Part shown: positions 40,548 to 64,000 of the stretch, in pieces | How positions within the stretch are numbered: position 1 is the first letter of the stretch | Layout: the number at the start of each line of letters is the position of its first letter | From: Escherichia coli | GTDB taxonomy: Bacteria > Pseudomonadota > Gammaproteobacteria > Enterobacterales > Enterobacteriaceae | DNA length: 64,000 nucleotides | NCBI RefSeq assembly: GCF_009931435.1 | Contig: NZ_CP043414.1 | Strand: one strand, 5' to 3' | Position numbers and translations under genes: made by a program | Notes under the pieces: generated by a model | What the model was told of the DNA's origin: nothing | Database searches by the model: none | What the model saw: the letters and a program-made list of their open reading frames with translations, nothing else

Positions 40548-40883
40548 CATGACTCCTTGCTCATCGCATGAAGACTCCGAGAGTGAACCCCGTTAGAAAG
40601 GGTCACACGCATGCCCCAATACAAAATTATTTGCTCGCCTCTATCGCTGCCTTTTCCTCAAAAGTGGAAAAGACAATGATAAAAAGTTACAAATATGTTA
40701 ATGAATAAACCAAATTGATCCCGTAATTATATTACGCCGCAAAATCCTTACAATAAACAGGTTTTTATTGAGCAAATTTGCATTTTTCGACAGTGATCAA
40801 TTTATAGCGAAATTGTCACGACCTCACCAATTTGATCTACGACAATTTATCGTGTTTTGCAGATTTTTTTCAAGAATTAAAAA

Positions 40884-40897
40884 TTGATTTATATCAA
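40884..40897. promoter_or_regulatory. FNR-type box in cydAB upstream region
   Basis: ttgatttatatcaa is an exact TTGAT-N4-ATCAA palindrome, about 340 bp upstream of cydA. Confidence 0.5.
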
Positions 40898-41272
40898 AAC
40901 CAATCAAATATGTTAATTATGTATAAACCATAGACCATTGGTAATTTTATTGTTAATTTATTGTGAAATATTTATGTAACACAATTATTACAATAAAAAG
41001 ACATAGATAAAAAACCAGTGTTTTATTTAACAGAATCGCCTTATCAACTTTTTATAATACCAATTGATTAGAGTAGCCAATTTGTTGCTATTTTACATAA
41101 CATATTTTTATCAAAGTTAATTGATTGTTGCCTTTATGAGCATCGCCGTAAGACCGCCATGTTATTGTTTCATTTGTAATAATCACCAATAAGTATCGAT
41201 GAGAGAGATATCGCTTAACAGAGGCGACTGTGTCTGCATGAACACAGGCAACTTTCGCCTGATAAACGAAAA

Positions 41273-42295
41273 ATGAGCGATTTTTGCAAGTTAGTTTTTC
41301 TATTGCCGGGTACGCTGAGCGCCTCGCTTGATTACAATGAGGTTGCTGCCATGGGTCTTGATAATATAGGTTCTGTTGTCAATCGCTTCTCTGGTTGGCC
41401 ATCAAATGATCCTCTAAAAACAGATAACGAATCAATGACATCACCCGTGACTGTGCAGGTAATAAAGTTGATTGCCGCCATCCTTGACCCACATCGGATA
41501 GTCGTTGGTATCGATACACTTTATACAACGCAGCGCAAAACATTTACCTCAGAGGGTCAACAACTCATTGAATCAGCATTGAAAACACTTAATGTGATGA
41601 ATTTAAATAACCTGGAAACAGATCGTGATGAGGAGGGTAACTATCTGGCTTTTGGATATAACGTTGACACTCCTGACAGAATAACCGTTTCTGCTTATAA
41701 TGAAAAAAAACCTTTCTGTTATGGCCAATGTCTTTTAATACAGGATGAAGAACCAGATTTATTTAACCTGGTAAAAATTAAAACCTTTGAAGCCAGGCAT
41801 AATTATGTTTCTAAATTGATGAGCGATCCGGAATTTATGTTTAAATTCAGTTATAGCGCCCAACAAAATAGATTAGAACCTCATCTTCTGGTTCCCACTT
41901 ATTTCCCTCTGAAAACAAACCAACCGGTTACGCTAGAGGATGTACTGATACTTTATCGTTTCTTTAAAATGAATGGCGATTTTAATATATTAACATCAGA
42001 TGAATACATGAGTATCATGACACCTCTGATGAAGTGTGAGCGTAGTATCCACGACCATAACAGGTATGTGACGGGCAAAGATGCTCTTCTTCTGGACAAT
42101 CCTCCGTCTGGTAACCAGATATATTTCCATATTTCCCCTGACGAATCAGCAACACTTGTCCTTTATTTTTCAGACAATAACCTTGAATCCTTCGTCTTTG
42201 AAAATGATATTCCGAGCCAGTATCGACATTTCAAAATGTTTACCAATTTAGCACTAGTTATTGATCAGTTAACCGACGCCAATCAAATACTTTAA
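41273..42295 (+). CDS. hypothetical protein, no recognisable family, low-GC gene
   Basis: 340-codon ORF in about 33 percent GC DNA; no Shine-Dalgarno at first ATG; alternative start ATG 41351 has GAGG 9 nt upstream. Confidence 0.6.
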   Translation: MSDFCKLVFLLPGTLSASLDYNEVAAMGLDNIGSVVNRFSGWPSNDPLKTDNESMTSPVTVQVIKLIAAILDPHRIVVGIDTLYTTQRKTFTSEGQQLIESALKTLNVMNLNNLETDRDEEGNYLAFGYNVDTPDRITVSAYNEKKPFCYGQCLLIQDEEPDLFNLVKIKTFEARHNYVSKLMSDPEFMFKFSYSAQQNRLEPHLLVPTYFPLKTNQPVTLEDVLILYRFFKMNGDFNILTSDEYMSIMTPLMKCERSIHDHNRYVTGKDALLLDNPPSGNQIYFHISPDESATLVLYFSDNNLESFVFENDIPSQYRHFKMFTNLALVIDQLTDANQIL

Positions 42296-42374
42296 TTTTC
42301 TATACAGCCCTGTGTAAAATATTGCTAAACAGTGCCCGGGGTTGATTTTTATTCCTCACGGTGATATTTAAATC

Positions 42375-42797
42375 ATGACACCATCTCAGCTCTCTTTTAA
42401 TACTCTTCCTGTCAATGCAACATGCACTTCAGAGATAACAGTAAACACACAAAAATTCTCTGACATCCTCTACTCAGTGGGGTATTCCCTAAAGGATCTG
42501 GCTTATCTGAGCAGATGTCTGGCATCATTACACCCGACACTCGCCAAAAACATTTATGAAACGGAAAATCTCAGCGATCAAAAATTACTTTATATAGATT
42601 GCCGTAGTACAAATGAAATCAAGATAAATATCTTTTTGGGTCAAAAAAGAGAAGAATTAATCGAAATTAGTTCTGATACAGTCATTTTTTCGATACTGTC
42701 TTCATTGATTGACTCAGTTATTTCTGAACATCGACATCAAATCCCCGTTAACGATTCAAATAATTCTGAACTATTTTATGAGGATTATACTGATTAA
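42375..42797 (+). CDS. hypothetical small acidic protein, no recognisable family
   Basis: 140 aa ORF, same strand, 79 bp downstream of the 340 aa ORF, AT-rich, acidic C-terminus (ELFYEDYTD). Confidence 0.55.
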   Translation: MTPSQLSFNTLPVNATCTSEITVNTQKFSDILYSVGYSLKDLAYLSRCLASLHPTLAKNIYETENLSDQKLLYIDCRSTNEIKINIFLGQKREELIEISSDTVIFSILSSLIDSVISEHRHQIPVNDSNNSELFYEDYTD

Positions 42798-43341
42798 ATC
42801 CACTCTGTACGAACCTGTCCTGCATTTATGCCAGAAGTATTAGAATCTTTGCTTAACGTTACTCATACAGTAGCACCTTCATGTGCCTCTCTTTTTTACG
42901 AAAAATCAAAAGAGCTAACAAAAGTCATTCTTCGCATGAATCATTAATTATTTGTTATTTTCAACATTATTTTTACATTAAGCATATATGAATTGCAGTG
43001 AAATTCGACTTAACTTTTATGAAATGCATTTACTCATGGCTAAAGCCACGTCACAAAAATGCAAATTAGAAGTTGATCACAATTATCTCAATCCATCAAA
43101 TCAAGTTAATTTTAAAAATTTAACATCCATGACATTAGTTGACATAACACGCTGAATTAAAATGAGAATTTAAAAAAACACTTTAAACAATCATTTCCCG
43201 AAAGACATTTTGAAAATAGATCAATTGCAACATTACGGTCAGATAAAGACACTCCTCTGATATTAAACCTGTGCCGTTATGAACGGCCATAAATACGACG
43301 TGTGTAACTTAATTTACTCTCTGTCTTACAAAGGATTACCC

Positions 43342-43791
43342 ATGAAGAAAGCAACACTTGTGATTGGCGTTATTGGCGCGGACTGCCATGCAGTAGGCAA
43401 TAAAGTTCTGGACCGCGTTTTTAGCAACCATGACTTCAGAGTCATTAATCTGGGCGTAATGGTCAGCCAGGACGAATATATTGATGCTGCCATTGAAACT
43501 GGCGCTGACGCGATTGTCGTCTCCTCTATCTATGGGCATGGCGATATCGATTGTCTGGGCATGCGCGAACGCTGCATCGAGCGTGGGCTGGGTAACATCC
43601 TGCTCTATGTGGGCGGTAACCTGGTGGTCGGAAAACATGACTTCGCTGACGTGGAAACCAAGTTCAAAGAGATGGGATTTGATCGCGTCTTTTCCCCAAG
43701 TCATGACTTAGAAGATGTTTGTCAGCTGATGGCCCACGATATCAACCAACGTCATGACGTTGATACTCGCATTCTTGAAGAGGCAATCTGA
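43342..43791 (+). CDS. glutamate mutase sigma subunit (B12-binding subunit)
   Basis: ORF 43279-43791; start placed at ATG 43342 after AAAGGA; [18 protein letters not shown] resembles the clostridial MutS/GlmS cobalamin-binding motif. Confidence 0.88.
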
Positions 43792-45179
43792 TGCAAATCG
43801 TCTCTGTCGATATTGGATCGACGTGGACCAAAGCAGCCCTCTTCACCCGGGAGGGGGACGCGTTAACGTTGGTTAACCACGTTCTGACCCCAACCACCAC
43901 CCATCATCTGGCGAAGGGGTTTTTCTCCAGCCTGGACCAGGTGTTAAACGTAGATGATGCCCTCCCCCTGTTAAACAGTGGTGAGGTTGCATTGAAGTAT
44001 TCCTCCTCTGCCAAAGGTGGGCTGGCGGTTGCCGCAATGGGAATAGTGCCTTCTATCACTCTGGAAACCGCGAAAGTAACCGCTCACTCTGCGGGTGCTA
44101 AAATTGCGCAATATTACGCCTACAAGCTGAACCGCCGTGATATCCAGGCACTGGAAGAAACGCAGCCCGATATTCTCTTGTTCACCGGCGGCACCGACGG
44201 CGGAGAAGAAAGCTACGGACTGAATAACGCCCGTGTGCTGGCAGAATCCAAACTCGACTGCGCCATTATTTATGCCGGAAACCGGGATATTCAGGACAAG
44301 GTGCAGGAGATCCTCGGGCATAAAGACCTGACCATCGTCGACAACGTTCTGCCCGATCTTGACCATCCGAACCCTTTAGCTGCACGCCAGGCTATCTGCG
44401 ACATATTCCTTAAACGCATCGTTAAAGGGAAAGGGCTGGATGTCATTGTTGATAAAACAGGCGAAGAACCAATGCCGACACCATGGACGGTCTTTGAACT
44501 GGTTAAGGCAATCAGTAACGTCGATCACAGCTGGAAAGAGTTCATGCTGATCGACATGGGCGGCGCAACCACCGATGTCTATTCCGCCTGTGCCAACACG
44601 CTCTCGCCCGACACTGTTTTACATGGCGTACCGGAACCCTTCGTAAAACGGACGGTGGAAGGCGATCTGGGAATGCGCGTCTCGGCAATGGTGGTTGGTG
44701 AAAGTGCGAAAGAGTTAGTCAGTGTGAATTTTGCTCAGCAACCCGCACAGTTGGACGCTTTTTATCATTACCTCCGTCATCTAGTCGCTCATCCCGACTA
44801 CTTACCCGCGAATGCAGATGAAAAATATTTCGATACCGTCCTGGCCGGACTGTGTGTGGGTTATGCCACCGAAAGACATGCGGGCACCAAAAAAGAGGTC
44901 TGCACCTGCGTCGGCAATGTCGATTTACAGATGGGACGTGACCTGACAACCGTGCGTAAAGTCGTGGGTTCCGGCGGATGGCTCTCGCGTGCCAGTCAGT
45001 TCGATATGCATCACTGGTTGAAATACCGCGAGTTAAACGACGACGGTAAACGCATTCTCTTACCGACCGAATTTGAATATTACCGCGATTCCCGGGGGCT
45101 ATTACCACTGCTGGCAAACGTCGCCAGAGTCGATCCGCTGGCCGCCGCGCGCACCAGTATTCAATGCTTAACCCTATAA
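43791..45179 (+). CDS. glutamate mutase accessory protein MutL/GlmL-like
   Basis: 462 aa ORF starting [18 protein letters not shown] (ASKHA-like ATPase N-terminus); 1-nt overlap with upstream gene. Confidence 0.85.
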   Translation: MQIVSVDIGSTWTKAALFTREGDALTLVNHVLTPTTTHHLAKGFFSSLDQVLNVDDALPLLNSGEVALKYSSSAKGGLAVAAMGIVPSITLETAKVTAHSAGAKIAQYYAYKLNRRDIQALEETQPDILLFTGGTDGGEESYGLNNARVLAESKLDCAIIYAGNRDIQDKVQEILGHKDLTIVDNVLPDLDHPNPLAARQAICDIFLKRIVKGKGLDVIVDKTGEEPMPTPWTVFELVKAISNVDHSWKEFMLIDMGGATTDVYSACANTLSPDTVLHGVPEPFVKRTVEGDLGMRVSAMVVGESAKELVSVNFAQQPAQLDAFYHYLRHLVAHPDYLPANADEKYFDTVLAGLCVGYATERHAGTKKEVCTCVGNVDLQMGRDLTTVRKVVGSGGWLSRASQFDMHHWLKYRELNDDGKRILLPTEFEYYRDSRGLLPLLANVARVDPLAAARTSIQCLTL

Positions 45180-45197
45180 CAATTAAGGCTGCAATCA

Positions 45198-46643
45198 ATG
45201 GAACTTCGAAATAAGAAATTAACCCATGACGAATTCATGACCGAGCGGCAACAGGTATTGAAAACCTGGGAAACCGGCAAGGATGTTGAAAACTTTGAAG
45301 ATGGCGTTAAATACCAACAAACCATTCCTGAGCATAAACGCTTCTCTCTTGCCCTGCTGAAAGCAGACAAGGAAGGTAAAACCCTTAGCCAACCGCGCGC
45401 AGGCGTGGCGCTGATGGACGAACACATCGAACTACTGAAAACACTACAAGAAGAGTGCGATCTGCTGCCGAGCACTATCGATGCATATACCCGTCTGAAT
45501 CGGTACGAAGAAGCTGCTGTAGGGATTAAAAAATCCATCGAAGCCGGAACCTCTAAACTGAACGGTTTACCGGTAGTTAACCACGGCGTCGCAGCTTGCC
45601 GTCGCCTCACCGAAACTCTGCAAAAACCGCTACAGATCCGCCACGGCACGCCAGATGCGCGTCTGCTGGCTGAAATCTCGATGGCCAGCGGCTTTACCAG
45701 TTATGAAGGCGGCGGCATTTCCTACAATATTCCGTATGCCAAGCGCGTAACGCTGGAAAAATCGATCCGCGACTGGCAGTACTGCGATCGTTTAATGGGG
45801 ATGTACGAAGAACACGGGATCCGCATCAACCGCGAACCGTTTGGCCCACTAACGGGTACGCTGATCCCGCCGTTTATCTCGCACTCTATCGCAATAATCG
45901 AAGGCTTGCTGGCACTGGAACAGGGTGTGAAGTCTATCACCGTTGGTTATGGTCAGGTCGGTAGCCTGACGCAGGATGTTGCGGCGATCCAGTCTCTGCG
46001 GGAACTTGCACACGAATATTTTCAGAGCTATGGCTATACCGACTACGAATTAAGTACCGTGTTTCACCAGTGGATGGGAGGCTTTCCGGAGGACGAATCG
46101 AAAGCGTTCGCCATTATCTCCTGGGGTGCTGCAGTCGCGGGGATGTCTGGTGCTACCAAAGTCATCACCAAAAGTCCGCACGAAGCCTGGGGCATCCCGA
46201 CTGCTGCTGCCAACATTCAGGGGCTAAAAGCCTCCCGCCAGATGCTCAACATGGTCAACGAGCAGAAATTCCCGCCGTGCCCGGCGGTTGAACTAGAAAT
46301 TGAACTGATTAAGAGCGAGGTTCGCGCTGTACTGAACAAAGTGTTCGAACTGGGTAATGGTGATATTGCGCGCGGTACGGTGCTGGCATTTGAAGCGGGC
46401 GTACTGGATGTGCCGTTTGCACCAGCCGCCTGCAACGCGGGCAAAATTCTTCCGGTCCGTGACAACACCGGCGCGATACGCGTACTGGAAGCCGGAGCCG
46501 TTCCATTGCCAAAAGATATTCTCGACCTCCACCACGATTACGTTGCGGAACGCGCGCGCTTTGAAGGACGCCAACCGACATTCCAGATGGTTGTAGATGA
46601 CATCAATGCTGTATCCCACAGTAAATTAATAGGAAGACCATAA
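45198..46643 (+). CDS. glutamate mutase epsilon (catalytic) subunit
   Basis: 481 aa ORF, N-terminus MELRNKKLTHDEFMTERQQVLKTW resembles clostridial GlmE/MutE. Confidence 0.88.
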   Translation: MELRNKKLTHDEFMTERQQVLKTWETGKDVENFEDGVKYQQTIPEHKRFSLALLKADKEGKTLSQPRAGVALMDEHIELLKTLQEECDLLPSTIDAYTRLNRYEEAAVGIKKSIEAGTSKLNGLPVVNHGVAACRRLTETLQKPLQIRHGTPDARLLAEISMASGFTSYEGGGISYNIPYAKRVTLEKSIRDWQYCDRLMGMYEEHGIRINREPFGPLTGTLIPPFISHSIAIIEGLLALEQGVKSITVGYGQVGSLTQDVAAIQSLRELAHEYFQSYGYTDYELSTVFHQWMGGFPEDESKAFAIISWGAAVAGMSGATKVITKSPHEAWGIPTAAANIQGLKASRQMLNMVNEQKFPPCPAVELEIELIKSEVRAVLNKVFELGNGDIARGTVLAFEAGVLDVPFAPAACNAGKILPVRDNTGAIRVLEAGAVPLPKDILDLHHDYVAERARFEGRQPTFQMVVDDINAVSHSKLIGRP

Positions 46644-47884
46644 TGAAAATAAAACAGGCCCTTTTTACCGCTGGCTACTCCTCATTCTATTTCGATGATC
46701 AGCAGGCGATAAAAAACGGAGCGGGTCACGACGGCTTTTTCTACACCGGAGAGCCGGTAACACAGGGGTTTAACGCCGTACGTCAGGCCGGGGAGTGCGT
46801 TTCGGTTCAGTTGATTCTGGAAAACGGTGCGGTCGCCGTAGGTGACTGTGCTGCCGTACAGTATTCCGGGGCAGGCGGTCGCGATCCACTGTTCCTCGCA
46901 GAGCACTTTATTCCGTTCCTCAACGACCATATCAAGCCATTACTGGTAGGCCGCGATGTGGATGCTTTCCTGCCGAATGCCCGTTTCTTCGACAAATTGC
47001 GTATTGACGGCAACTTGCTGCATACCGCCGTACGTTACGGATTATCACAGGCGCTGCTTGATGCTACCGCGCTGGCAACCGGCCGTCTGAAAACTGAAGT
47101 GGTCTGTGATGAATGGCAGTTGCCACGCGTGGCGGAATCCATTCCATTATTTGGTCAGAGCGGCGACGATCGATATATCGCCGTCGATAAGATGATCCTT
47201 AAGGGCATCGACGTGCTGCCCCATGCGCTGATTAATAACGTCGAAGAGAAACTGGGCTTTAAAGGTGAAAAACTGCGCGAATATGTCCGCTGGTTGTCAG
47301 ATCGCATTCTGAGCAAGCGCACCAGCGCACGCTACCACCCTACCCTGCACATCGATGTATACGGCACTATCGGTCTGATCTTCGATATGGATCCGCTTCG
47401 CTGTGCGCAATACATCGCCAGTCTGGAAAAAGAGGCGCAAGGCCTGCCGCTCTACATTGAGGGGCCGGTCGATGCCGGTAACAAGCCCGATCAAATCCGC
47501 CTGCTGACCGCGATTACCAAAGAGCTGACGCGCCTCGGTTCCGGCGTGAAAATCGTGGCCGATGAATGGTGTAACACCTACCAGGATATTGTTGATTTCA
47601 CTGATGCCGCCAGTTGCCACATGGTGCAAATCAAAACCCCGGATCTGGGCAGTATTCACAACATCGTCGATGCAGTTCTTTATTGCAACAGCCACAGCAT
47701 GGAAGCGTACCAGGGCGGCACCTGCAATGAAACTGATGTCAGTGCCCGCACCTGTGTCCACGTCGCCCTTGCTGCTCGCCCCATGCGTATGCTGGTAAAA
47801 CCAGGGATGGGCTTTGACGAAGGCCTCGATATCGTCTTCAACGAAATGAATCGTACTATCGCGCTGTTGCAGGCTAAGGATTAA
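46643..47884 (+). CDS. 3-methylaspartate ammonia-lyase
   Basis: 413 aa ORF, N-terminus MKIKQALFTAGYSSFYFDDQQAIKNGAGHDGFFYTGEPVTQGF is a close match to remembered methylaspartase (enolase superfamily). Confidence 0.88.
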   Translation: MKIKQALFTAGYSSFYFDDQQAIKNGAGHDGFFYTGEPVTQGFNAVRQAGECVSVQLILENGAVAVGDCAAVQYSGAGGRDPLFLAEHFIPFLNDHIKPLLVGRDVDAFLPNARFFDKLRIDGNLLHTAVRYGLSQALLDATALATGRLKTEVVCDEWQLPRVAESIPLFGQSGDDRYIAVDKMILKGIDVLPHALINNVEEKLGFKGEKLREYVRWLSDRILSKRTSARYHPTLHIDVYGTIGLIFDMDPLRCAQYIASLEKEAQGLPLYIEGPVDAGNKPDQIRLLTAITKELTRLGSGVKIVADEWCNTYQDIVDFTDAASCHMVQIKTPDLGSIHNIVDAVLYCNSHSMEAYQGGTCNETDVSARTCVHVALAARPMRMLVKPGMGFDEGLDIVFNEMNRTIALLQAKD

Positions 47885-47887
47885 CAA

Positions 47888-49258
47888 ATGGCTCGTTCTT
47901 TTAAAGTCTTATCGCCAACGGCAATCCTCGGGTATGGATTCCCGGAAGAGAGCTTCCGCAAAGCGATGGCAGAATCGCCCGATCTGATCGCCGTTGATGC
48001 AGGCTCTTCCGATCCTGGCCCCCACTACCTCGGGGCGGGCAAACCGTTTACCGATCGCGCAGGGGTCAAGCGCGATCTGCGCTATATGATCACCGCAGGC
48101 GTGCAAAATAATATACCGGTGGTGATCGGAACGGCCGGCGGTTCTGGTGCCGCTCCACACCTGGAGTGGTGCCGAGAAATAATTCATGAGATTGCCCGGG
48201 AAGAGCACCTCGCGTTCTCGATGGCGCTGATCCCGGCAGACGTTGACAAAGCCATCGTCCACCAGGCGCTGGATAACGGCAAAATCACAGCGCTGGATTT
48301 TGTCCCGCCGTTAACCCACGACGCGATTGACGAAAGTACGTATATCGTCGCGCAAATGGGCATCGAACCCTTCCAGCAGGCGCTGAAAGAAGGCGCGCAA
48401 GTGGTGCTGGGCGGGCGCGCTTACGACCCGGCCTGCTTTGCTGCGCTACCGATCATGCAAGGCTTTGATGAAGGTCTGGCGCTGCATTGTGGGAAAATCC
48501 TTGAATGCGCGGCAATCGCCGCAACGCCCGGCTCAGGCTCTGACTGTGCGATGGGCATCATTGATGACAACGGCTTTACGCTGAAGACATTTAATCCGAA
48601 GCGTAAATTTACCGAAACGTCAGCGGCTGCACACACACTGTATGAGAAATCCGATCCCTACTTCCTGCCAGGACCTGGCGGCGTGTTGAACCTGAAAGGC
48701 TGCACATTTAAAGCGGTCAATGACGGCGAAGTGTACGTCAGCGGTTCTAAGCATGAAGAAACGCCGTATGCCCTGAAACTGGAAGGTGCGCGGCGGGTGG
48801 GCTTCCGCTGTCTGACCATCGCAGGAACGCGCGACCCGATCATGATCGCCGGGATCGATAAAATCATCGATGAAGTCAAAACCAGCGTTTCGCGTAACCT
48901 GTCGCTCGACGATGACAGCATTCGCATCAATTTCCACCTGTACGGCAAAAACGGGGTGATGGGCGACCATGAACCGATGCAAACTGCCGGGCATGAGCTG
49001 GGGATTGTCCTTGATGTAGTTGCACCGACCCAGGATATTGCCAATAGCGTTTGCTCGCTGGTGCGCTCTACCATGCTGCACTACGGCTATGAAAACCGCA
49101 TCGCTACCGCAGGCAACCTGGCGTTCCCGTTCTCCCCTTCTGATATCCAGGGCGGGCCGGTATACGAATTTTCCATATATCACCTGATTGAAGCCAACGA
49201 CGCTCTGCGTTTTGATTTCCATATTGAACAGGTGACGCCAGAAGGAGTTCAGGCATGA
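47888..49258 (+). CDS. conserved protein of unknown function, tentatively DUF1446 / AtuA-like
   Basis: 456 aa ORF 3 nt after the lyase gene; family assignment from memory of an LIAVDAGSSDPGP-type N-terminal pattern. Confidence 0.7.
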   Translation: MARSFKVLSPTAILGYGFPEESFRKAMAESPDLIAVDAGSSDPGPHYLGAGKPFTDRAGVKRDLRYMITAGVQNNIPVVIGTAGGSGAAPHLEWCREIIHEIAREEHLAFSMALIPADVDKAIVHQALDNGKITALDFVPPLTHDAIDESTYIVAQMGIEPFQQALKEGAQVVLGGRAYDPACFAALPIMQGFDEGLALHCGKILECAAIAATPGSGSDCAMGIIDDNGFTLKTFNPKRKFTETSAAAHTLYEKSDPYFLPGPGGVLNLKGCTFKAVNDGEVYVSGSKHEETPYALKLEGARRVGFRCLTIAGTRDPIMIAGIDKIIDEVKTSVSRNLSLDDDSIRINFHLYGKNGVMGDHEPMQTAGHELGIVLDVVAPTQDIANSVCSLVRSTMLHYGYENRIATAGNLAFPFSPSDIQGGPVYEFSIYHLIEANDALRFDFHIEQVTPEGVQA

Positions 49259-49572
49259 AACAGTCAATTGTCTCACTGGCGCAAGTCATTCGTTCGAAAA
49301 ATGCCGGACCTTACGAACTGGTTTTAGATATTTTATTTAAAACGAAAGAAAACTATGAGCGAGTAAAATCATCAGGGCAATTAACCCCAGAACTGATTGC
49401 GCGCTTATATCATGTTGAACCTGACTTTATTCATCGTATTGTCTGGTTTGATCCTTCTAACGCAGTAAAAATTGTCATGCCACGAGATATTATCTCCGGG
49501 AATGTAGGTGACAATGATGTCTATGGCGCACAGCAACATGCACCTTTATTAAATATGAGTTTCGATTTGTAA
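49255..49572 (+). CDS. small conserved protein, tentatively DUF4387-like partner
   Basis: 105 aa ORF overlapping the preceding gene by 4 nt (ATGA coupling). Confidence 0.7.
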   Translation: MKQSIVSLAQVIRSKNAGPYELVLDILFKTKENYERVKSSGQLTPELIARLYHVEPDFIHRIVWFDPSNAVKIVMPRDIISGNVGDNDVYGAQQHAPLLNMSFDL

Positions 49573-49658
49573 AAATCCGAACACTTTTAGCCAACTGACA
49601 TCCCGTCACTTATTGCAGCTCAACACTTCAGCTATTTGTAAGGTTGTTATAGCAGGTA

Positions 49659-49684: not shown

Positions 49685-49732
49685 CACTTCTCCTGATTCT
49701 GATTTATCGCCGTGCACCTGATGGAGGAAAAA

Positions 49733-52773: not shown

Positions 52774-52782
52774 GGAAAATGA

Positions 52783-53385: not shown

Positions 53386-53418
53386 TAACTGCGCCTGGCA
53401 TCCAGCCAGGCGCAGGTT

Positions 53419-54324: not shown

Positions 54325-54480
54325 AATGCCGTCCCTTAAAAATAGTTTAAACCATCAAAAATACATTACTTATTACGAAGTAATGGTAACCAAAGCAGCA
54401 ATAAATAATTTATAAGAATCATGATTAACATTTATAACCCAGTAAGCCTGGCGTGACAATTATCTTAATCAGATAATAAT

Positions 54481-54509
54481 AATCCGAAAAGCACAGCACC
54501 TTTCGGATT
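54481..54509 (-). terminator. hairpin downstream of the HAL-like gene (weak terminator candidate)
   Basis: Stem atccgaaa / tttcggat with 11-nt loop, followed on the minus strand by ATTATTATTAT. Confidence 0.35.
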
Positions 54510-54594
54510 ATCAGGAATTACATTAAGTGAAAATTATTAAATTGATATCATTTATCATATCTGTGGATATAATGATAAACAATCAACATAGATT

Positions 54595-56265: not shown

Positions 56266-56315
56266 TGTGTTTCCTTATTTTGATGAGTTTAACAACGGAT
56301 TACTGCAACAACCTC

Positions 56316-57266
56316 TTAATTTGTTTTATCTGTTTTTCCTCGACGGACAATAGTGGCAGCCAGGCGAGCGGCAACCTTCGCGGTCAAATTATCGCGGTCC
56401 AAATCTGGGTTCAGTTCGGCAATATCCGCAGCAATCAACTTCTCGCTACCGGCAATTAAATTCACAATAGCCTCAGCAATATTTAATGGCACGCCTAACG
56501 GCGAAGGCGCAGAAACGCCAGGAGCCTGATAACCCGGTAAGACATCAAGACAAATCGTTAAATAAATGGCGTCACACGCCTGAATATCTGCCGAGAGCGC
56601 ATTAACAATCTCATGCAAACCACGTTCAAATTGCAGAGATTCATCCAGCCAATAACGCACACCAGGACAATCAGCACGATCAAATAACGCCTGAGTGTTG
56701 GCATAACGGCTTATTCCCAGCACGCGATAATGAAACGGTTTGCCATGCTGCGCATTCCACTCCTGCATCTGCCGAAACGGCGTACCCGAATTGGCCTTTT
56801 CCGCCATCCGCAAATCAAAATGCGCGTCAAGGTTGACTATCAGCAGTCGCCGAATATCCGGACGCGACTGCATAATCCCCTGAAATGTTCCCCATGCCAC
56901 TTCATGACCGCCGCCCAGAACGACCGGCAAACTGCCGCGCGCAATTGCCATAGCCACGTTTTCCGCCAGACGGTTTTGTGCGGGTTCCAGCGCGTGGTCT
57001 TCGCTTTGCACGTCACCCATGTCAAAAATAGCGCCTTCATGGAGCACTGGCATATTGCCCAACATGCTGCGTAATGCGCCCGGTCCGCCTGCTGCGCCCG
57101 CTCGCCCACCGTTACGTTGCACCCCGTCATCGACGGCAAAACCAATCAGCGTACTGCCTCCATGACTTTGTTCGGTAAACGGTTTTACATGCTGATGCCA
57201 GCGGGTGCTGACGCCAGTTTCCTGCGAGTCAACACGTCCACTCCATGCCATAAATGTTTGCTTCAT
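56316..57266 (-). CDS. hutG: formimidoylglutamase
   Basis: ORF 56316-57305; start placed at ATG 57264-57266 overlapping hutI stop (TAATG); arginase-fold motifs GGGHE and DAHFD. Confidence 0.85.
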   Translation of the reverse strand: MKQTFMAWSGRVDSQETGVSTRWHQHVKPFTEQSHGGSTLIGFAVDDGVQRNGGRAGAAGGPGALRSMLGNMPVLHEGAIFDMGDVQSEDHALEPAQNRLAENVAMAIARGSLPVVLGGGHEVAWGTFQGIMQSRPDIRRLLIVNLDAHFDLRMAEKANSGTPFRQMQEWNAQHGKPFHYRVLGISRYANTQALFDRADCPGVRYWLDESLQFERGLHEIVNALSADIQACDAIYLTICLDVLPGYQAPGVSAPSPLGVPLNIAEAIVNLIAGSEKLIAADIAELNPDLDRDNLTAKVAARLAATIVRRGKTDKTN

Positions 57267-58477
57267 TACCAACTCCTTTTTCCGCCGACAATCAGCCCCA
57301 GACAAGGCTGATGTCCAAACCAGTAAGCCAGCTCACGCGGATGATTAAGATCCCAAACAGCCATATCCGCCCGTAGTCCCGGCGCAAGTTCACCCCGATC
57401 AACAAGTCCAAGCGCTTTTGCCGCATGACGTGTAACGCCCTGAACGGCTTCCAGCGGGGTCATGTGAAACAGCGTACAGGCCATATTGATCATCAACTGC
57501 AATGACATGTTGGGAGACGTTCCGGGGTTATGATCCGTGGAGATGGCAATCGGCACACCTGCGGCCCGCAGAGCGACAATCGGCGGCAGATGGGTTTCGC
57601 GCAGGAAGTAATAAGCACCGGGAAGCAAAACCGCCACTGTTCCAGCCGCTTTCATGGCGGCGATCCCCGACTCGCTCAGGTACTCCAGATGATCGCAGGA
57701 GAGTGCAGAAAACGCCGCTGCCAGCGCCGCGCCTTGCTGGTCAGAAAGCTGTTCGGCATGCAGTTTTACAGGTAATCCATAGCTTTGCGCTTTACTGAAA
57801 ACGCGCCGTACCTGCTCTGGAGTAAAGGCGATGTTTTCACAAAAAGCATCAACTGCATCAATCAGCCCCTGTTCATGCAACACGCACATCCAGTCGCAAA
57901 GCGCCGTAATGTAATCATCACTGCGCCCGGCAAACTCTGGCGGCAGGCTGTGCGCCCCGAGAAACGTAGACTGAATATGTAACCCGGTAGATTGCTGCAA
58001 GCGGCGGATCACGCGTAAACAACGCGCTTCATCTTCCAGCGTTAAGCCATAACCCGATTTGATTTCAAGCGTACTGACGCCTTCACGTTGCCAGTTTCGC
58101 AGTCGCTGCGCCGCCAGTTCAAACAGCTGTGTTTCGCTGGCTGCCCGCGTGGCATTAACCGTAGATAAGATCCCGCCGCCCGCTCTGGCGATATCTTCAT
58201 AAGCCACGCCTTGCAACCGCATCTCAAACTCGTTCGCCCTCTGGCCGCCATACACCAGATGTGTATGACAATCTACCAGACCGGGTGTCAGCAACTTACC
58301 CTGTAGATCGTGTTCTTCTGTAATATCAGCCGTCAGTTCACGGGGGATCTGCGTGGCCTTCCCAAGCCAGACAATCGAGTCACCGCGGCTGATTAATGCA
58401 CCGTTTTCAATCACCCCCCAATCATTAGCCGAAAGCGTCGTCAGGGTGGTATTTCGCCAGAGCGTAAATGCACTCAT
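57266..58477 (-). CDS. hutI: imidazolonepropionase
   Basis: ORF 57266-58513; start placed at ATG 58477 (MSAFTLWRNTTL) overlapping hutD stop (ATGA); amidohydrolase DCHTHL motif. Confidence 0.85.
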   Translation of the reverse strand: MSAFTLWRNTTLTTLSANDWGVIENGALISRGDSIVWLGKATQIPRELTADITEEHDLQGKLLTPGLVDCHTHLVYGGQRANEFEMRLQGVAYEDIARAGGGILSTVNATRAASETQLFELAAQRLRNWQREGVSTLEIKSGYGLTLEDEARCLRVIRRLQQSTGLHIQSTFLGAHSLPPEFAGRSDDYITALCDWMCVLHEQGLIDAVDAFCENIAFTPEQVRRVFSKAQSYGLPVKLHAEQLSDQQGAALAAAFSALSCDHLEYLSESGIAAMKAAGTVAVLLPGAYYFLRETHLPPIVALRAAGVPIAISTDHNPGTSPNMSLQLMINMACTLFHMTPLEAVQGVTRHAAKALGLVDRGELAPGLRADMAVWDLNHPRELAYWFGHQPCLGLIVGGKRSW

Positions 58478-59064
58478 AAGGATTTTTCCCCTCGTAGATA
58501 ATAAATCCACCAACCCGCCAGCTCGCCGACGGAGACTTTTTGCTGTGGTACGAAACGCCAGGAGTTGCCATCAGGCGCAAACCGCCATAACAACGTATTC
58601 GCCGTTACAAACACCCTGTTCTCGCCGCTTATCCACTCCCCTTCACACAGCGTGAACAGCCCCGCTTGCGCATGCGCCGGAGGGAGCCAGTCAATGACGC
58701 TTTGCACACGACGCATCCCCGCATCGCCTTCCCGCGCCATAATATTCAGATCGCGAACCCCGCCGCCCAGCAGCTGACAATCAGGCATTGCTTCTCCAGG
58801 GAAAATTAAGGCGGGATCGTGACGTTGCAGGTTGATGATCGAATCGGCAAACGTTAGCTTCACCCCTTCCCCGTCGAGGATCGCGAGGCCACGAACCACG
58901 CCAGGCCACGCTGAAAAAGGGCCATCCTGACTGACATTCGCCATACTGATGCGCAACAACCAGTTTTCATCATCGGGCCAGGCAAGCAGCTGTCGGGTAA
59001 ACCCCCCGCCGTTGCGCCACGGTTGCAGCGGCTTATCCATTGCAGAAATCAGCATCGGTTCCAT
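58474..59064 (-). CDS. hutD: HutD-family protein
   Basis: 196 aa ORF with WRNGGGFTRQL, matching the HutD N-terminal signature. Confidence 0.8.
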   Translation of the reverse strand: MEPMLISAMDKPLQPWRNGGGFTRQLLAWPDDENWLLRISMANVSQDGPFSAWPGVVRGLAILDGEGVKLTFADSIINLQRHDPALIFPGEAMPDCQLLGGGVRDLNIMAREGDAGMRRVQSVIDWLPPAHAQAGLFTLCEGEWISGENRVFVTANTLLWRFAPDGNSWRFVPQQKVSVGELAGWWIYYLRGEKSL

Positions 59065-59065
59065 A

Positions 59066-60475
59066 TTAAGACTCGGGATAAATCGTATAAGCAGGAACGC
59101 AGGTGGTGCGTTTGGCCCACGGGTAATAGATAACGGCGGTAATTAACAAGCCGACAATCCAGGAGATATCCGCCCCATCCATCAGGACAGAAATGGGTCC
59201 CTGATACAGTTTTTGATTCAGGAAGGGGATCTGCACCAACACGCCTACGCCATAGCACGTCAAAGCGGTTTTGTTATACGCGCCATAACGCCCTTCCGGG
59301 GTATAAAGCGCTGGAATATCGGTTTTACCTTGTGAGATGAAGTAATAATCGATGAGATTAATGGCACTCCACGGAACAAATACCGTCAACAGTAGCAGAA
59401 CGAAGTTTTTGAAATTATTCAAAAAATCTGCGCTTGCCGCCAGCGCGACGACCATCGACAACAGCACGAACCCTACAACGTAGGCAGCACGAACACGCTG
59501 TGAAACCTGACTGCGATCATTAAAGGCGCTGACGGTCGCCAGAATCGACATAAAGCCACCGTAGGCATTCAAACAGTTCACCGTCAGTTTGCCGCAAACA
59601 ATCACCATATAAATCAGAATGGCGAAGGTGGGTCCGGCTAACTCGCCCATAAAACCAACCTGATCCTTCAGGAAGTTAGCACCACAGGCCGCAACAAGTA
59701 CGCCAAACGTCATGGCACATTGCGCACCAAGCGTGGTTCCCAGAAAGGTGGCAAAGAAGATTGATTTTGCTGGCGTATCAGAGGGTAAATAGCGGGAATA
59801 ATCAGAGGCGTAAGGGGCAAACGTTAATTGCCATCCGGCAGAGAGAGCAATCGTTAATAAAAAGACCGACAGACTAAATGGCTTTTGACCAAATGCCGCA
59901 GCCACATCGTAGTGACCGCTAAGTTGAGTGGCCAGGTAAATAAACCCCAGAATACTTAATATCCCTGCAACACGGCCAACGACGTGAATTAGTTTATAAC
60001 CGACCAATGCGATCATCGCGGTCAGCATGCCGAAAATAATAATTCCGGTCGATGCCGATTCGAAACCAAATATCCGGTTAATCGCCTGACCGGATAATAC
60101 TGTACCCGTCGCGGCAAATCCAAGGTACATAATAATCACCATCAGTAACGGTAGCGCCGCTCCTTTAACGCCAAAGCGGATACGACTGGAGATCATCTGG
60201 GGTAATCCCAGCTTTGCCCCCTGCGACGAGTGCAATGCCATTACTGCACCACCAATAATATTACCGATTAATAAACCAATTATTGCTGACATAGCTTCGG
60301 AGCCAAAAATAATCGCTAACGCGCCGTCCACCACTGCGGTAATTTGTAAGTTAGCACTTAGCCATAAAGTAAACTGACTAGATGGCGCGCCGTGGCGAGC
60401 AGACTCAGGAACGGCGTTAATCGTATTTGATTCTAATACTGGCTTTTTACTGCGGATAGGGCTGCTTGATTCCAT
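59066..60475 (-). CDS. NCS1-family permease (CodB-like)
   Basis: ORF 59066-60520 starts on TTG; start placed at ATG 60475 with AGGAG 8 nt upstream; CodB-like RFGVKGAALP segment. Confidence 0.8.
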   Translation of the reverse strand: MESSSPIRSKKPVLESNTINAVPESARHGAPSSQFTLWLSANLQITAVVDGALAIIFGSEAMSAIIGLLIGNIIGGAVMALHSSQGAKLGLPQMISSRIRFGVKGAALPLLMVIIMYLGFAATGTVLSGQAINRIFGFESASTGIIIFGMLTAMIALVGYKLIHVVGRVAGILSILGFIYLATQLSGHYDVAAAFGQKPFSLSVFLLTIALSAGWQLTFAPYASDYSRYLPSDTPAKSIFFATFLGTTLGAQCAMTFGVLVAACGANFLKDQVGFMGELAGPTFAILIYMVIVCGKLTVNCLNAYGGFMSILATVSAFNDRSQVSQRVRAAYVVGFVLLSMVVALAASADFLNNFKNFVLLLLTVFVPWSAINLIDYYFISQGKTDIPALYTPEGRYGAYNKTALTCYGVGVLVQIPFLNQKLYQGPISVLMDGADISWIVGLLITAVIYYPWAKRTTCVPAYTIYPES

Positions 60476-60638
60476 GAAAAAGTCTCCTGCAAAATGAGAG
60501 GTCATTTTTTGAAACAGCAATAGAGGGTCGGGAGATATTTTTCTCGACGATGTAAAAATATTTTTTGATAATTATTGTTATACAGGCGAATTATTCTCCG
60601 CCTGTATTAGCGCAAATATTAAATGACGGCGTTAATAT

Positions 60639-62336
60639 TTAGCGAATCATCGGTAATTTCAGACCATAGTTTTTGGCACATTCAATTGCCGCTTCATAAC
60701 CCGCATCCGCATGACGCATAACCCCGGACGCACAGTCATTCACCAGCACACGCGCCAGACGTTTTTCGGCTTCTTCGCTACCATCGGCAACAATAACCAT
60801 CCCGGCGTGTTGTGAATACCCCATCCCGACGCCGCCGCCATGATGCAGGGATACCCACGTTGCTCCCCCTGCAGTGTTGAGCAAACCGTTGAGCAACGGC
60901 CAGTCAGAAACCGCATCACTGCCATCAAGCATGCTTTCGGTTTCGCGGTTCGGGCTGGCGACAGAACCGGTATCAAGATGATCGCGCCCAATCACAATCG
61001 GTGCTTTTAGTTCACCGTTGCGCACCATTTCGTTGAATGCCAGCCCCGCCAGGTGACGCTCACCAAGCCCCAGCCAGCAAATACGTGAAGGAAGTCCCTG
61101 GAAGGCAATGCGCTCGCGCGCCATATCCAGCCAGCGATGCGTCAGTACGTTATTGGGGAACAACTCTTTAATTTTGGCATCGGTTTTATAGATATCTTCC
61201 GGGTCGCCAGACAGCGCCACCCAACGGAATGGACCTTTGCCTTCACAAAACATTGGACGAATATAAGCCGGAACAAAGCCCGGGAAATCAAAGGCATTTT
61301 GCAGACCTTCGTTGAAGGCCACCTGGCGGATGTTGTTGCCATAATCGACAACCGGGATCCCCATCGCCTGGAAGTCCAGCATCCCCTGAACATGTGCGAC
61401 GCAGCTCTGTGCCGCTTCTTTTTGCAATCTGGCGTGTTGCTGTGGATCCTGCTGTGCAGCGCGCCATTGTTCTACGCTCCAGCCCATCGGTAGGTAGCCA
61501 TAAACCAGATCGTGAGCGGAAGTCTGGTCGGTTACCAGATCCGGCTTAATCGCCCCCTGATGCGCACGTTTCACCAGCTCAGGAACAATTTCCGCCGCAT
61601 TGCCCAACAGCGCGATTGAAACAGCGTCTTTGCGCTCGGTATGGTATTTAATCAGCGCCAGTGCATCATCAAGATCTTTCGCTTGTTTATCGACATAACG
61701 GGTACGCAGTCGGAAGTCGATGCTACTTTGCTGGCACTCGATATTTAATGAGCACGCCCCCGCCAGAGTCGCCGCCAGCGGTTGTGCGCCACCCATACCA
61801 CCGAGCCCCGCGGTCAGGATCCATTTTCCACTCAGCGAATTGTTGTAGTGCTGACGACCCGCTTCAACAAAGGTTTCGAACGTTCCCTGCACAATGCCCT
61901 GACTACCGATGTAGATCCACGAGCCAGCGGTCATCTGGCCGTACATGAACAGACCTTTACGATCCAGTTCATTGAAATGATCCCAGTTGGCCCATTGCGG
62001 TACCAGGTTAGAGTTGGCAATCAATACGCGCGGCGCATCGGTATGCGTTTTAAACACGCCTACGGGTTTACCGGACTGAACCAGCAGTGACTCATCAGCT
62101 TCCAGATTTTTCAGTGATTCAAGGATCTTGTCAAAACACTCCCAGTTACGTGCCGCACGACCAATACCACCATACACCACCAGATGCTGTGGATTTTCGG
62201 CAACGTCGGGATCAAGGTTGTTCTGCAACATCCGGTAGGCTGCTTCAATTTGCCAGTTTTTGCAGTGCAGCTGCGTACCGTGTGGCGCATGGATTACACG
62301 GCTGGTATCAATACGCGGGTCTGAAGGCTTACTCAT
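60639..62336 (-). CDS. hutU: urocanate hydratase
   Basis: ORF 60639-62435; start placed at ATG 62336 ([12 protein letters not shown]) with AGGAG upstream, 565 aa; long identity runs with remembered HutU ([33 protein letters not shown]). Confidence 0.88.
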
Positions 62337-62402
62337 GAATCTTCTCCTGTTACTTGATAAAATTAAACGCTGTAATCGGTCAGAAAAAACGAACGAATGA
62401 AT

Positions 62403-62419
62403 ATAGAAACGGTTTCTAT
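62403..62419. promoter_or_regulatory. candidate operator palindrome upstream of hutU
   Basis: atagaaac-g-gtttctat, 8-1-8 perfect dyad about 70 bp upstream of hutU start. Confidence 0.3.
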
Positions 62420-62454
62420 AATTCCCGTTTATCATTTTGTATTATTAATTCATT

Positions 62455-62487
62455 TAGTGAATATTGTTTGTCTTGGTATATTCACTA
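62455..62487. promoter_or_regulatory. candidate operator inverted repeat upstream of hutU
   Basis: tagtgaatat-N13-atattcacta, perfect 10-bp arms. Confidence 0.3.
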
Positions 62488-63093
62488 TGAATATAAATTC
62501 AAAACCACCAACGCGTTGTATGCGAATTCAATATGCTTAATTTAACTTGTCGAAAAAGTGATATTGTTGGCAAAATATTTTCTAATTTGAACATATGAAT
62601 ATGATGAGATTGCAAGATGTCAGTAATTTAATTATCTAAGAAATGCGTTAATAACGACCAGATATTAGCGTAACAACAGGTGTTCCGACACCACACAGTG
62701 CGCATAACACAATGATATTTAAAATAAGATCTTCATTATTCGTCATAAAGACATGTTTTATTATCATTAATAATCCATTTGTTTTCATCCCACTTTTGAT
62801 AATTAAAAAACGGCAACAATGGCTAGTTACCCGACGTAAAAATAGGCGTAAAAATAAATCTTAAAATATATCCACTGGAAATTATCATTTTTCATATTTT
62901 ACAATCTGGCGTCGATAACTTACCCCTTTTATAACACCCCCGTTTGTTAATAGTCTTTTTTATCTTGTATTGATCGTCATTGCTGCATACACTACGCGCG
63001 TTTTCTTTCCCTTTTGCTGGCTGCTGACCGGAAAGACAAAATTACCCTCGCAATACAGGGGGTTGATTAACGTCTATATTTCAGGACAGCGTT

Positions 63094-64000
63094 ATGCATC
63101 ATCTTTCAAGGCTTGATAAAGCCTTTCTGCGCAAAGGGATCCAACTTTCCCGCGCCAACAATATTGTTTCATTATGTCGTCCATCAGGAGCCAGTGCCCG
63201 CGTACTGCTGCCGGACGAACTGCCGCTGGAAGAAAAAGCAGTGACACAACTGCTTGATTTTGCAGAAGTGAAGATACCAGGCCATCCAGGTTACGTACGC
63301 CAGACGTGCGCGACGCCAGATTTTCATCCCGGCAATGGCGTCCCCGTTGGCGCGGTGGTGGCCTCAACGCCGGATTTAGTCATTCCCGCCGCCATCGGCA
63401 CCGATATTTCTTGTGGCATGCGGCTGCTGACGACCGGATTAACCCTTGAGCAAGCCGAAGCGAATAAAGAAATAATCACTCAGCGGTTAACACAAGTGTT
63501 ACTGCAGAATGAGCGCGATGTTCCGTTATCCGCACGAGCGTTCACCGCGCTTTTTGATGGCGGACCGGCAGATTGCATGTCGGCCTTGCCATCAGCAGGT
63601 CTCTGGACACGTACAAATATCCCCCGGATGACGCAAGAGATTGACCGCTGCATTGGGCTTAACGAGCATAACAGTCATTCGCGTTATGCCCCCACCTGCC
63701 CTGCTGGCAACGGACCGCGCATTACTCCGCGATCCTTGTCTTGGTACGCCGGGTTCAGGTAATCATTTTATTGAACTTCAGGTCGTTGATAGCGTGGTTG
63801 ATCGCCATGTAGCCTGGCAACAAGGGCTGAAAACAGGCGATATTGTGGTGATGATCCACAGTGGATCGCGAGATGTTGGCTTTTACGTCGGAAGACGCTG
63901 GATGGATCGCGCCCGTGCTGAATGGCCCACCGGACATAAACATCCACAAAGCGGGTTATATGGTCTGGCAGGCGGACTGGCGGAGGAATATCTACAAGCG
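63094..64000 (+). pseudogene. RtcB-family RNA ligase homolog, apparent frameshift, runs off window
   Basis: Frame 1 carries PDFHPGNGVPVGAV and stops at 63762; frame 2 opens at 63632 and carries LGTPGSGNHFIEL and HSGSRDVG; C5 run at 63688-63692 lies in the overlap. Confidence 0.65.

Follow-up and report, generated by a model that had tools for sequence, protein, structure and literature searches.

What occupies the chromosome upstream of cydA in Escherichia coli, and how did its content come to differ between strains? The question is raised by a 64,000-nucleotide stretch of E. coli DNA (RefSeq assembly GCF_009931435.1, contig NZ_CP043414.1; hereafter the window), in which more than 23 kb of accessory DNA stand where K-12 carries mngB-mngA-mngR. 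This block comprises two orphan genes (hypA and hypB), a methylaspartate cluster for glutamate fermentation, a LysR-type regulator gene, an operon resembling those for histidine utilization (hut) and an RtcB-family gene. A first-pass annotation, made from the letters alone, had implied that the block was inserted into a K-12-like ancestor. The comparisons described below argue for a different history. Quite probably, the block preserves an old, immobile metabolic island more completely than any other surviving form. This island would reach from the cydAB promoter to the sdhX/sucD terminator, with the islands of O157:H7 and other lineages as its deletion derivatives, and when intact it probably encodes one route that starts from a histidine betaine.

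Up to cydA, the annotated agreement with K-12 was confirmed. Positions 771086-812102 of K-12 (NC_000913.3) and positions 1-40922 of the window align in a single collinear run with an identity of 96.5%, broken only at the repeated lysT-valT tRNA array, and past 40922 K-12 homology ceases. The synteny break, previously placed at 40548, is thus correct in essence; its exact start is not, since weakened K-12 homology (strongly diverged, 62-86% per 100 nucleotides (nt)) persists across the cyd promoter region and fades out only some 375 nt ahead of cydA, at approximately 40922. Queries with MngR, MngA, MngB and SucD by tblastn gave zero matches in the window, and all genes that had been listed beyond cydA are present.

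The right end of the block was examined in the closest genomes, 2020CK-00188 (99.3% identity over 23,453 bases), R32_14_1F (99.8% over the hut part) and IAI39. In all three, sucD follows within about 100 nt after RtcB (sdhX-sucD), and neither mngRAB nor an integrase is found in the RtcB-sucD interval. In these relatives, it is sucD and not mng that stands after RtcB; the block is not present in K-12. In 2020CK-00188, 23,940 bp separate the cydA start codon from sdhX, and judging from these relatives the island of the window would end about 490 nt beyond base 64000.

The cydA-sucD interval has the properties of a hotspot: constant flanking core genes, several alternative contents and fixed borders. 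On the sucD side, seven aligned genomes (K-12, O157, window and B2 types as well as E. whittamii) are identical through the T-run of the sdhX terminator and diverge immediately thereafter, and the stop codon of the window-type rtcB sits in an A-run complementary to this terminator. On the cydA side, the border lies inside the cyd upstream region, at 40922 with respect to K-12 or at 41186 with respect to the B2 type.

Between these common anchors, seven arrangements were found. K-12 carries mngB-mngA-mngR (type A), and O157:H7 two orphan genes, the methylaspartate cluster and LysR (type B). The type B content is accompanied by RtcB and mngBAR in strain 98224 (type C), and by the hut-like operon and RtcB without mng in the window and in IAI39 (type D). 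A gene for a TPR protein stands alone in FDAARGOS_1267 and NU14 (type E) and together with mngBAR in AVS0093 (type F). Finally, an Escherichia-like genome with a core identity of 89% harbors hypA and an unrelated gene of 258 amino acids (type G). The modules were counted over 5,426 complete E. coli genomes: mngRAB is found in 3,864, the TPR module in 1,105, the island at an identity of at least 95% in about 1,136, rtcB in 289 (abutting sucD in 156) and the full hut operon in 143. The accessory DNA described for this position is real, its full form being present in about 2.6% of the genomes, while a further 837 retain only a remnant (133 nt) of the 3' end of the lyase gene. The number of genomes per type, obtained partly by subtraction, is estimated as about 3,175 for type A, 837 for B, about 146 for C, 143 for D, about 562 for E and about 543 for F. 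Previous reports have found the methylaspartate cluster in about one quarter of E. coli (PMC4682846) and mngAB and mngR to be variable within B2, where they are present solely in ST131 (PMC9836092). mngRAB is itself a variable cassette.

The direction of change is recorded in the spacer between LysR and sucD of O157:H7. This spacer of 666 bp consists entirely of four collinear pieces of window-type sequence (positions 26778-27185, 27528-27589, 36671-36727 and 36903-37041 of the window-type sequence L001). The first piece covers the LysR-lyase spacer and the final 138 nt of the lyase gene, the second and third are 62 nt internal to the lyase gene and 57 nt internal to rtcB, and the fourth contains the final 42 nt of rtcB followed by sdhX. 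The implied deletions measure 342, 9,081 and 175 bp. Since internal gene fragments are kept in the correct order, deletion is the sole possible origin of the spacer, and the O157 arrangement derives from an undeleted window-type form. In E. whittamii the breakpoints differ: what remains is 315 nt from the lyase gene, 134 nt from hutU and 115 nt from rtcB. The B2 type shows weak collinear matches to glmS, to the 5' end of hutU and to the hutU-rtcB spacer (E-values of 1e-7 to 1e-12), and in the type G genome hypB is fused at window position 42548 straight to position 62525. Because of these collinear fragments of lyase, hutU, glmS or rtcB, the O157:H7 type, the B2 type, E. whittamii and one further Escherichia species are independent deletion derivatives. 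The long allele has thus been shortened by no fewer than four independent events in three or more species.

What would the intact island encode? The hut-like label given to its second operon fits HutU, HutI and HutG; it does not fit the aromatic-lyase-family enzyme encoded beside them, which is annotated as a HAL/PAL/TAL ammonia-lyase (HAL, histidine ammonia-lyase). This lyase scores 277 bits with the hutH model TIGR01225 (cut-off 539), and its best solved relative is the ergothionase of Treponema denticola (6s7j; 295 bits, E = 1.4e-86), compared to 168 bits for HAL of P. putida. At the site where HAL reads GASGD the lyase reads GSIGAAD, so that the Ala-Ser-Gly triad which forms the 4-methylideneimidazole-5-one (MIO) cofactor is missing. 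The same motif is missing in all 19 aligned homologs; PF00221 is the Pfam family recorded for lyase homologs. The operon label needs revision, since a lyase of this sequence cannot be a canonical histidine ammonia-lyase.

Recently, it was shown that MIO-deficient lyases strip trimethylamine from histidine betaines and that the enzymes of Shewanella are periplasmic (10.1101/2025.08.13.670108, 10.64898/2026.04.22.720169). Ergothionase uses Lys384 to bind the thiolate of its substrate, and this discriminating residue is replaced by Asn in the histidine betaine lyase Swoo_3913 and by Gln in SO_3299, a lyase for N-pi-methyl histidine betaine (10.1101/2025.08.13.670108, 10.64898/2026.04.22.720169). 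In the window lyase, Ile438 aligns with Lys384, while Glu466, 28 residues downstream, aligns with a Glu as in Swoo_3913 (Asn439, Glu467). The N-terminus, MKGLIRRVTVTVVLWSVCSIAMA, follows a good Shine-Dalgarno sequence ahead of Met1 and resembles an export signal, predicting a periplasmic location. A similar extension is found in all Gram-negative homologs and not in the Enterococcus homolog. Taken together, the enzyme probably releases trimethylamine from a histidine betaine, most likely hercynine. The choice of hercynine follows from the hydratase of the operon, which scores as a urocanase and stays below the cut-offs for thiourocanate hydratase (670 versus 930) and S-methyl thiourocanate hydratase (671 versus 880); the product of the lyase would therefore most simply be urocanate. 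On an unrelated contig (L017), a lyase with 85% identity lies immediately beside an NCS1 permease with 85% identity, which ties the permease to the lyase. The Enterococcus lyase locus and the contig with P0008, which represent the closest lyases outside Escherichia, contain no hut genes and are uninformative on the substrate, and an exact-protein lookup for the gene context of the E. marmotae lyase (P0004) returned nothing on record.

Among the alternatives, the one that survives best concerns this enzyme: the operon might serve ordinary histidine utilization, with the lyase being a divergent but genuine histidine ammonia-lyase. Such a function would agree with HutU, HutI and HutG, which exceed the curated cut-offs of the canonical enzymes, with one RefSeq record in which the lyase gene is labeled hutH, and with the histidine fermentation of gut anaerobes, for which the combination of Hut and methylaspartate enzymes is a known route (10.64898/2026.06.22.733842). 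In that study E. coli served as the non-metabolizing control (10.64898/2026.06.22.733842). However, every characterized member of the family that lacks MIO requires a trimethylammonium leaving group (10.64898/2026.04.22.720169). Together with the missing triad, the closer match to ergothionase than to HAL, the export signal-like N-terminus and the lack of a gene for the GntR-family repressor HutC in 40551-64000, where the sole regulator is LysR-type, this makes a genuine histidine ammonia-lyase unlikely. A Turicimonas homolog encoded beside a flavocytochrome c gene was considered as support for such an activity and dropped, given that the MIO motif is missing and that clusters of this kind were shown to use betaines in the Shewanella work.

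If the lyase acts on a betaine, the genes of the island can be arranged into one route. In the periplasm, the MIO-less lyase would cleave the histidine betaine, likely hercynine, into urocanate and trimethylamine, and the NCS1 permease might then import urocanate. In the cytoplasm HutU, HutI and HutG, whose family assignments pass curated cut-offs, would convert urocanate to glutamate and formamide. Finally, the B12-dependent mutase, methylaspartase and FumD, the O157 ortholog of which has been characterized biochemically as a true mesaconase (PMC4682846), would lead from glutamate via mesaconate to (S)-citramalate. More tentatively, and with rather less confidence than we place in the history of the locus, it may be proposed that a minority of E. 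coli (the approximately 2.6% of complete genomes with the full operon, IAI39 included) and E. marmotae use the secreted lyase, HutU/I/G and the methylaspartate enzymes as a single hercynine-to-citramalate pathway, that they could thereby be a source of trimethylamine in the gut, and that O157 may have lost the upstream substrate by deletion.

The age of the island can be judged from its divergence. From glmS to lysR the window is 97.3-99.4% identical to O157, IAI39 and 98224, and the flanking tol and cyd genes are 95.7-98.3% identical. Orthologous methylaspartate clusters elsewhere (E. fergusonii, S. enterica subsp. diarizonae and Citrobacter) have protein identities of 80-94%. In E. fergusonii, the cluster adjoins sucD on the sucD side of mngR-mngA; in CP099328.1 (L018 1-13785) its neighbors are mngR and sucD, and cobO, the orphan genes, hut and rtcB are absent. 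This order of the two modules is the reverse of that in E. coli strain 98224, where the cluster is found between cydA and mngB. The cluster of S. enterica subsp. diarizonae is flanked by a recognizable remnant of the cyd promoter and by sucD, whereas Citrobacter amalonaticus shows a different right flank. One part of the island stands out: from the LysR-lyase spacer to hutD (window 54325-59064), the identity to IAI39 (L005 15726-20456) is 85.9-94.7%, in contrast to about 99% for LysR, ncs1 and hutU, which suggests that a divergent allele contributed a recombination tract here.

Could the block nevertheless be a mobile island, recently gained by horizontal transfer and integrated upstream of cydA in place of mngRAB, with mobility genes that lie beyond the window or were lost? 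The patchy distribution of the full form, the AT-rich margins, the atypical codon usage of hypA, hypB and rtcB, and a FumD phylogeny not wholly congruent with the species tree could be taken in this sense. The mosaic composition noted earlier is indeed found, with a GC content of 34-37% at 40.5-43.5 kb, 37% at 62-63 kb and 50-57% in the operons and elsewhere; the operons are not richer in GC than the core (mean 52%). In codon usage, hypA, hypB and rtcB are outliers, as is the DUF4387 gene in GC at third codon positions, whereas the 15 other island genes, those of mal and hut included, fall within about 2 standard deviations of 27 core open reading frames (ORFs). The earlier failure to detect an integrase, a transposase or a flanking tRNA is upheld by directed searches. 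In 40551-64000 no integrase, recombinase or transposase is encoded; all ORFs are assigned and the largest intergenic gap of 722 nt leaves no space for one. No tRNA gene is detected past 31451, the nearest (31376-31451) being separated from the block by 9 kb that contain the tol and cyd operons, and a search for flanking direct or inverted repeats gave only short pairs at chance level. A pair of 26-nt repeats at 40900 and 42279 was rejected as a border repeat, as it matches no allele border and B2-type homology continues past it to 41186.

Recent gain of a mobile element is very improbable in view of these results. In three near-identical genomes the island stops at the sdhX terminator and is followed by sucD without any integrase, the catabolic genes resemble the core in codon usage and in their divergence, and E. 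whittamii, E. fergusonii and Salmonella diarizonae share the locus and the orientation. The sole plasmid-borne copy (NZ_CP195869.1, 'plasmid pFXCREC043-3', L023) joins the methylaspartate cluster and fragments of sucD and sucC to conjugation genes, and nearly all of its genes are frameshifted. Because it is ridden with frameshifts and carries sucD, it was set aside as a chimeric, unpolished assembly and not a copy of a mobile island. The block is an old resident allele that is being lost piecemeal, not a mobile element.

A shade less probable still is that the O157-type island, i.e. the methylaspartate cluster with LysR, was the original form and that the hut-like operon and rtcB were inserted later in the window lineage. 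In favor of this order, the short form outnumbers the long one about sixfold (837 versus 143 genomes), and strain 98224 has both the methylaspartate cluster and rtcB while hut is absent and no remnant of the lyase gene is found. Insertion, however, cannot yield the ordered, non-terminal fragments of lyase and rtcB in the O157 spacer, and remnants of hutU or of hut intergenic DNA persist with differing breakpoints in E. whittamii, the B2 type and a further Escherichia species. On these alignments late insertion is refuted for O157; for the 98224 type it may still apply. A chimeric join in the source genome, for which no support was found although a chimeric assembly of the region exists (NZ_CP195869.1), can practically be dismissed, as 142 complete genomes of independent projects, IAI39 among them, carry the 23.4-kb arrangement without interruption.

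The old resident island is best accommodated in a polymorphic locus with two slots. The slot next to cydA would be empty or hold either the TPR-protein gene or the island, and the slot next to sucD would hold mngRAB or be empty. Alleles would be inherited vertically, and they are eroded by internal deletions such as those preserved in the spacers; the window, like IAI39, would have retained all modules of the island and be missing mngRAB. Insertion into a K-12-like ancestor, as assumed initially, is contradicted by the variability of mngRAB itself, by the fragments that make up the O157 spacer, by the position of the methylaspartate cluster next to sucD in other species and by the deviating K-12 version of the cyd promoter region.

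Several observations weigh against this account. The window ends within rtcB, and its right junction is therefore inferred from relatives. The methylaspartate cluster lies on the sucD side of mng in E. fergusonii and on the cydA side in 98224, so that a rearrangement or independent acquisitions are needed. At 82%, FumD of E. fergusonii stands farther off than its Citrobacter counterpart (87%), which, in combination with the differing position relative to mng, indicates some horizontal exchange or rearrangement. In the K-12 spacer between mngB and cydA, zero remnants of the island are found at E-values up to 1e-3. Alleles are probably exchanged by homologous recombination within the sdh-suc and cyd-tol flanks, which are highly conserved, but this mechanism we infer only. 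The modules were counted without cross-tabulation, and a rare type that combines hut and mng is possible. With respect to function, the Ile at the discriminating position of the lyase matches none of the characterized enzymes, which possess Lys, Asn or Gln.

The features of the window that are relevant to this locus are compiled in the table.

Features of the cydA-rtcB region, with window coordinates, strand and basis of each assignment
Feature	Position	Strand	Basis and remarks
cydA	38979..40550	-	ORF call; CydA query match 100%; annotated by RefSeq in related genome; final core gene in the run collinear with K-12; anchors the variable interval on the left
cydAB upstream regulatory region, island-type	40551..41186	.	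Alignments; shared by B2-type genomes to 41186, K-12 homology fades at about 40922
hypA, orphan of 314 amino acids, AT-rich, fast-evolving	41351..42295	+	Longest ORF begins at 41273; codon score z = -3.6
hypB, orphan of 140 amino acids, AT-rich	42375..42797	+	Codon score z = -4.2
glmS-glmL-glmE, B12-dependent glutamate (methylaspartate) mutase and reactivase	43279..46643	+	All three above NCBIfam equivalog cut-offs
Methylaspartate ammonia-lyase	46643..47884	+	TIGR01502, 544 bits (cut-off 286)
AtuA-family (DUF1446) protein and DUF4387 protein	47888..49572	+	RefSeq names; Pfam families in orthologous loci
Dicarboxylate/amino acid:cation symporter, GltP/DctA-like	49712..51013	+	NCBIfam matches below equivalog cut-offs
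FumD, class I fumarate hydratase (mesaconase)	51121..52773	+	NF011921, 1276 bits (cut-off 1060)
cobO, cob(I)yrinic acid a,c-diamide adenosyltransferase, adenosyl-B12 supply	52783..53385	+	NF004637, 295 bits (cut-off 185)
LysR-family regulator	53419..54324	-	GcvA-like profile match, below cut-off
Aromatic-lyase-family enzyme, 556 amino acids; predicted histidine-betaine trimethylammonia-lyase	54595..56265	-	MIO motif missing; signal peptide-like N-terminus
hutG (formimidoylglutamase), hutI (imidazolonepropionase), HutD/Ves-family protein	56316..59064	-	hutG 288 versus 229 bits, hutI 452 versus 298; RefSeq names
NCS1-family permease, candidate importer of urocanate or betaine	59066..60520	-	NCS1 subfamily match below cut-off
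hutU, urocanate hydratase	60639..62435	-	TIGR01228, 934 bits (cut-off 375)
hutU-rtcB intergenic region, AT-rich (37% GC), genes divergent	62436..63093	.	Fragments kept in B2-type genomes and another Escherichia species
RtcB-family gene, 5' part, truncated by window end	63094..64000	+	Family match below cut-off; phrog_1075

The cyd upstream region is less conserved than the genes it precedes. Its identity to the window is 79-80% over about 375 nt in K-12 and 90% over 642 nt in the B2 type, compared to about 97.5% for the adjoining cydAB coding sequence. Between -100 and -400 the window shares 71.5% identity with K-12, 70.8% with Salmonella and 91% with another Escherichia species, and identities among the window, B2, ST131-like and type G versions are 88-94%. 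The K-12 version is the odd one out. At 40620-40925, E. coli possesses two deeply diverged versions which share short conserved blocks, and the version tracks the neighbor of cydA. K-12 contains 473 nt of its own between mngB and the shared cyd promoter (L004 8613-9085), in which palindromic units resembling repetitive extragenic palindromes were recognized by eye and which resemble none of the island sequences.

The two orphan genes gave zero matches in family searches (Pfam, NCBIfam, PADLOC and PHROG). Homologs of hypA are confined to Escherichia, with identities of 98, 88 and 63%, the last of which adjoins cydA in another Escherichia species whose core DNA is 89% identical. Within E. coli, hypA and hypB are 88-93% identical and evolve much faster than their neighbors; for hypB the identity across lineages is 88-90%, compared to 97-99% for the neighboring genes. 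Both stay beside cydA when the remainder of the island has been lost by deletion (window 41351-42797; L021 9880-11068). A predicted structure of HypA, based on an alignment of seven sequences, reached a mean pLDDT (predicted local distance difference test) of 47, too low for use.

In the methylaspartate cluster, FumD is 98% identical to E. coli FumD protein clusters. The symporter corresponds to the protein named GltP, and the function of the DUF1446 protein was listed as unknown, by Kronen and Berg in 2015 (PMC4682846). The LysR gene is convergent with cobO, with an 18-nt inverted repeat in between (53382-53422). The rtcB gene carries five C residues at 63689-63693, compared to four in R32_14_1F, IAI39 and 98224, and the resulting frameshift leads to a stop at 63762 and a frame of 222 amino acids versus 465 in related genomes; the extra C reflects either a pseudogene in the window's strain or a homopolymer sequencing error. 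An Rfam scan of 40000-64000 at gathering thresholds gave zero matches. In strain 98224, the LysR-RtcB spacer (L003 19986-20120) contains a 136-nt element with 83% identity to positions 8645-8780 in the core part of the window; its size would fit an intergenic repeat of the enterobacterial repetitive intergenic consensus (ERIC) type. The best identity of window 1-25000 to any of the 5,426 complete E. coli genomes is only 98.1% (most reach 96.3%), and strain 2020CK-00188 matches 30260-64000 at 99.3%. The window comes from an E. coli lineage of which few genomes have been sampled and which relates to its nearest sequenced relatives as a mosaic.

In itself, the synteny break is ordinary: it marks a strain-variable island at a hotspot, which has been present in reference genomes since IAI39 and half of which has been characterized in O157:H7. 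Its meaning lies in the direction of the comparison. K-12 is not ancestral at this locus, where the long allele is the undeleted one and the well-studied island of O157 a decayed copy, and this decay may help to explain why a physiological role for the O157 cluster was not found. The intact allele unites a predicted histidine-betaine lyase and the Hut enzymes with the methylaspartate pathway, which bears on microbial trimethylamine. If the proposed pathway is true, these Enterobacteriaceae would be a gut source of trimethylamine from dietary or fungal histidine betaine (hercynine), and the glutamate-fermentation cluster of O157, so far without a purpose, would gain an upstream substrate that was lost in O157 by deletion. 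Moreover, the two diverged versions of the cydAB regulatory region could alter the regulation of cytochrome bd-I between lineages. In the literature searched, no description was found of the remnant scars in O157, of the two-slot locus, or of an MIO-deficient lyase coupled to Hut and methylaspartate enzymes, and a search for hut genes across E. coli phylogroups or for an O-island name of the cluster found nothing. The report on the O157 cluster mentions neither 'histidine' nor 'cydA' and is silent on chromosomal position, hut genes and deletion scars (PMC4682846).

Comparison with known systems places the window closest to IAI39 (NC_011750.1, ECIAI39_RS03485-RS03575), in which gene order and orientation from cydA to sucD are identical: two hypothetical genes, glmS-L-E, mal, AtuA, DUF4387, symporter, fumD, cobO, LysR, lyase, hutG, hutI, hutD, permease, hutU and RtcB. 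The hut part is 96.2% identical overall, and IAI39 has an intact RtcB gene, unlike the frameshifted one of the window. With the glutamate-fermentation cluster of O157:H7 (PMC4682846) the window shares the chromosomal position, the left junction and the genes from glmS to LysR (97.6-99.3%; 90-92% for hypA and hypB). O157:H7 differs in being devoid of the hut-like operon and RtcB, of which only the four fragments in its spacer are left. The window carries together glmS, glmE, methylaspartate ammonia-lyase, FumD, CobA and LysR, the genes of the cluster described by Kronen and Berg.

Genomic and pathogenicity islands associated with tRNA genes resemble the block in strain-variable presence, an AT-rich margin and some atypical codon usage. 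In contrast to these islands, the block is devoid of an integrase, of a tRNA or attachment site and of direct repeats, and its borders are a promoter region and a terminator common to all alleles.

Classical hut operons, as found in Klebsiella, Salmonella and Pseudomonas, share HutU, HutI, HutG (the formimidoylglutamase route) and a HutD-family protein with the window. Unlike these operons, the window lacks an MIO-forming HutH as well as HutC, employs an NCS1-type transporter and occupies another chromosomal position, the hut genes of Salmonella being located near gal-bio. The window lyase belongs to the same MIO-less family as Swoo_3913 of Shewanella woodyi and SO_3057 and SO_3299 of S. oneidensis, with the ergothionase of T. 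denticola as the nearest relative. The window lyase and the Shewanella enzymes have an N-terminal signal of the export type and a neutral residue in place of Lys384 of ergothionase. At this discriminating position the window lyase has Ile and the Shewanella enzymes Asn or Gln, and the Shewanella homologs found are only 54-56% identical to it. The partners differ as well: the Shewanella lyases are coupled to periplasmic flavocytochrome c reductases of anaerobic respiration, whereas the lyase of the window, next to the methylaspartate pathway, is coupled to a permease and the cytoplasmic enzymes HutU, HutI and HutG.

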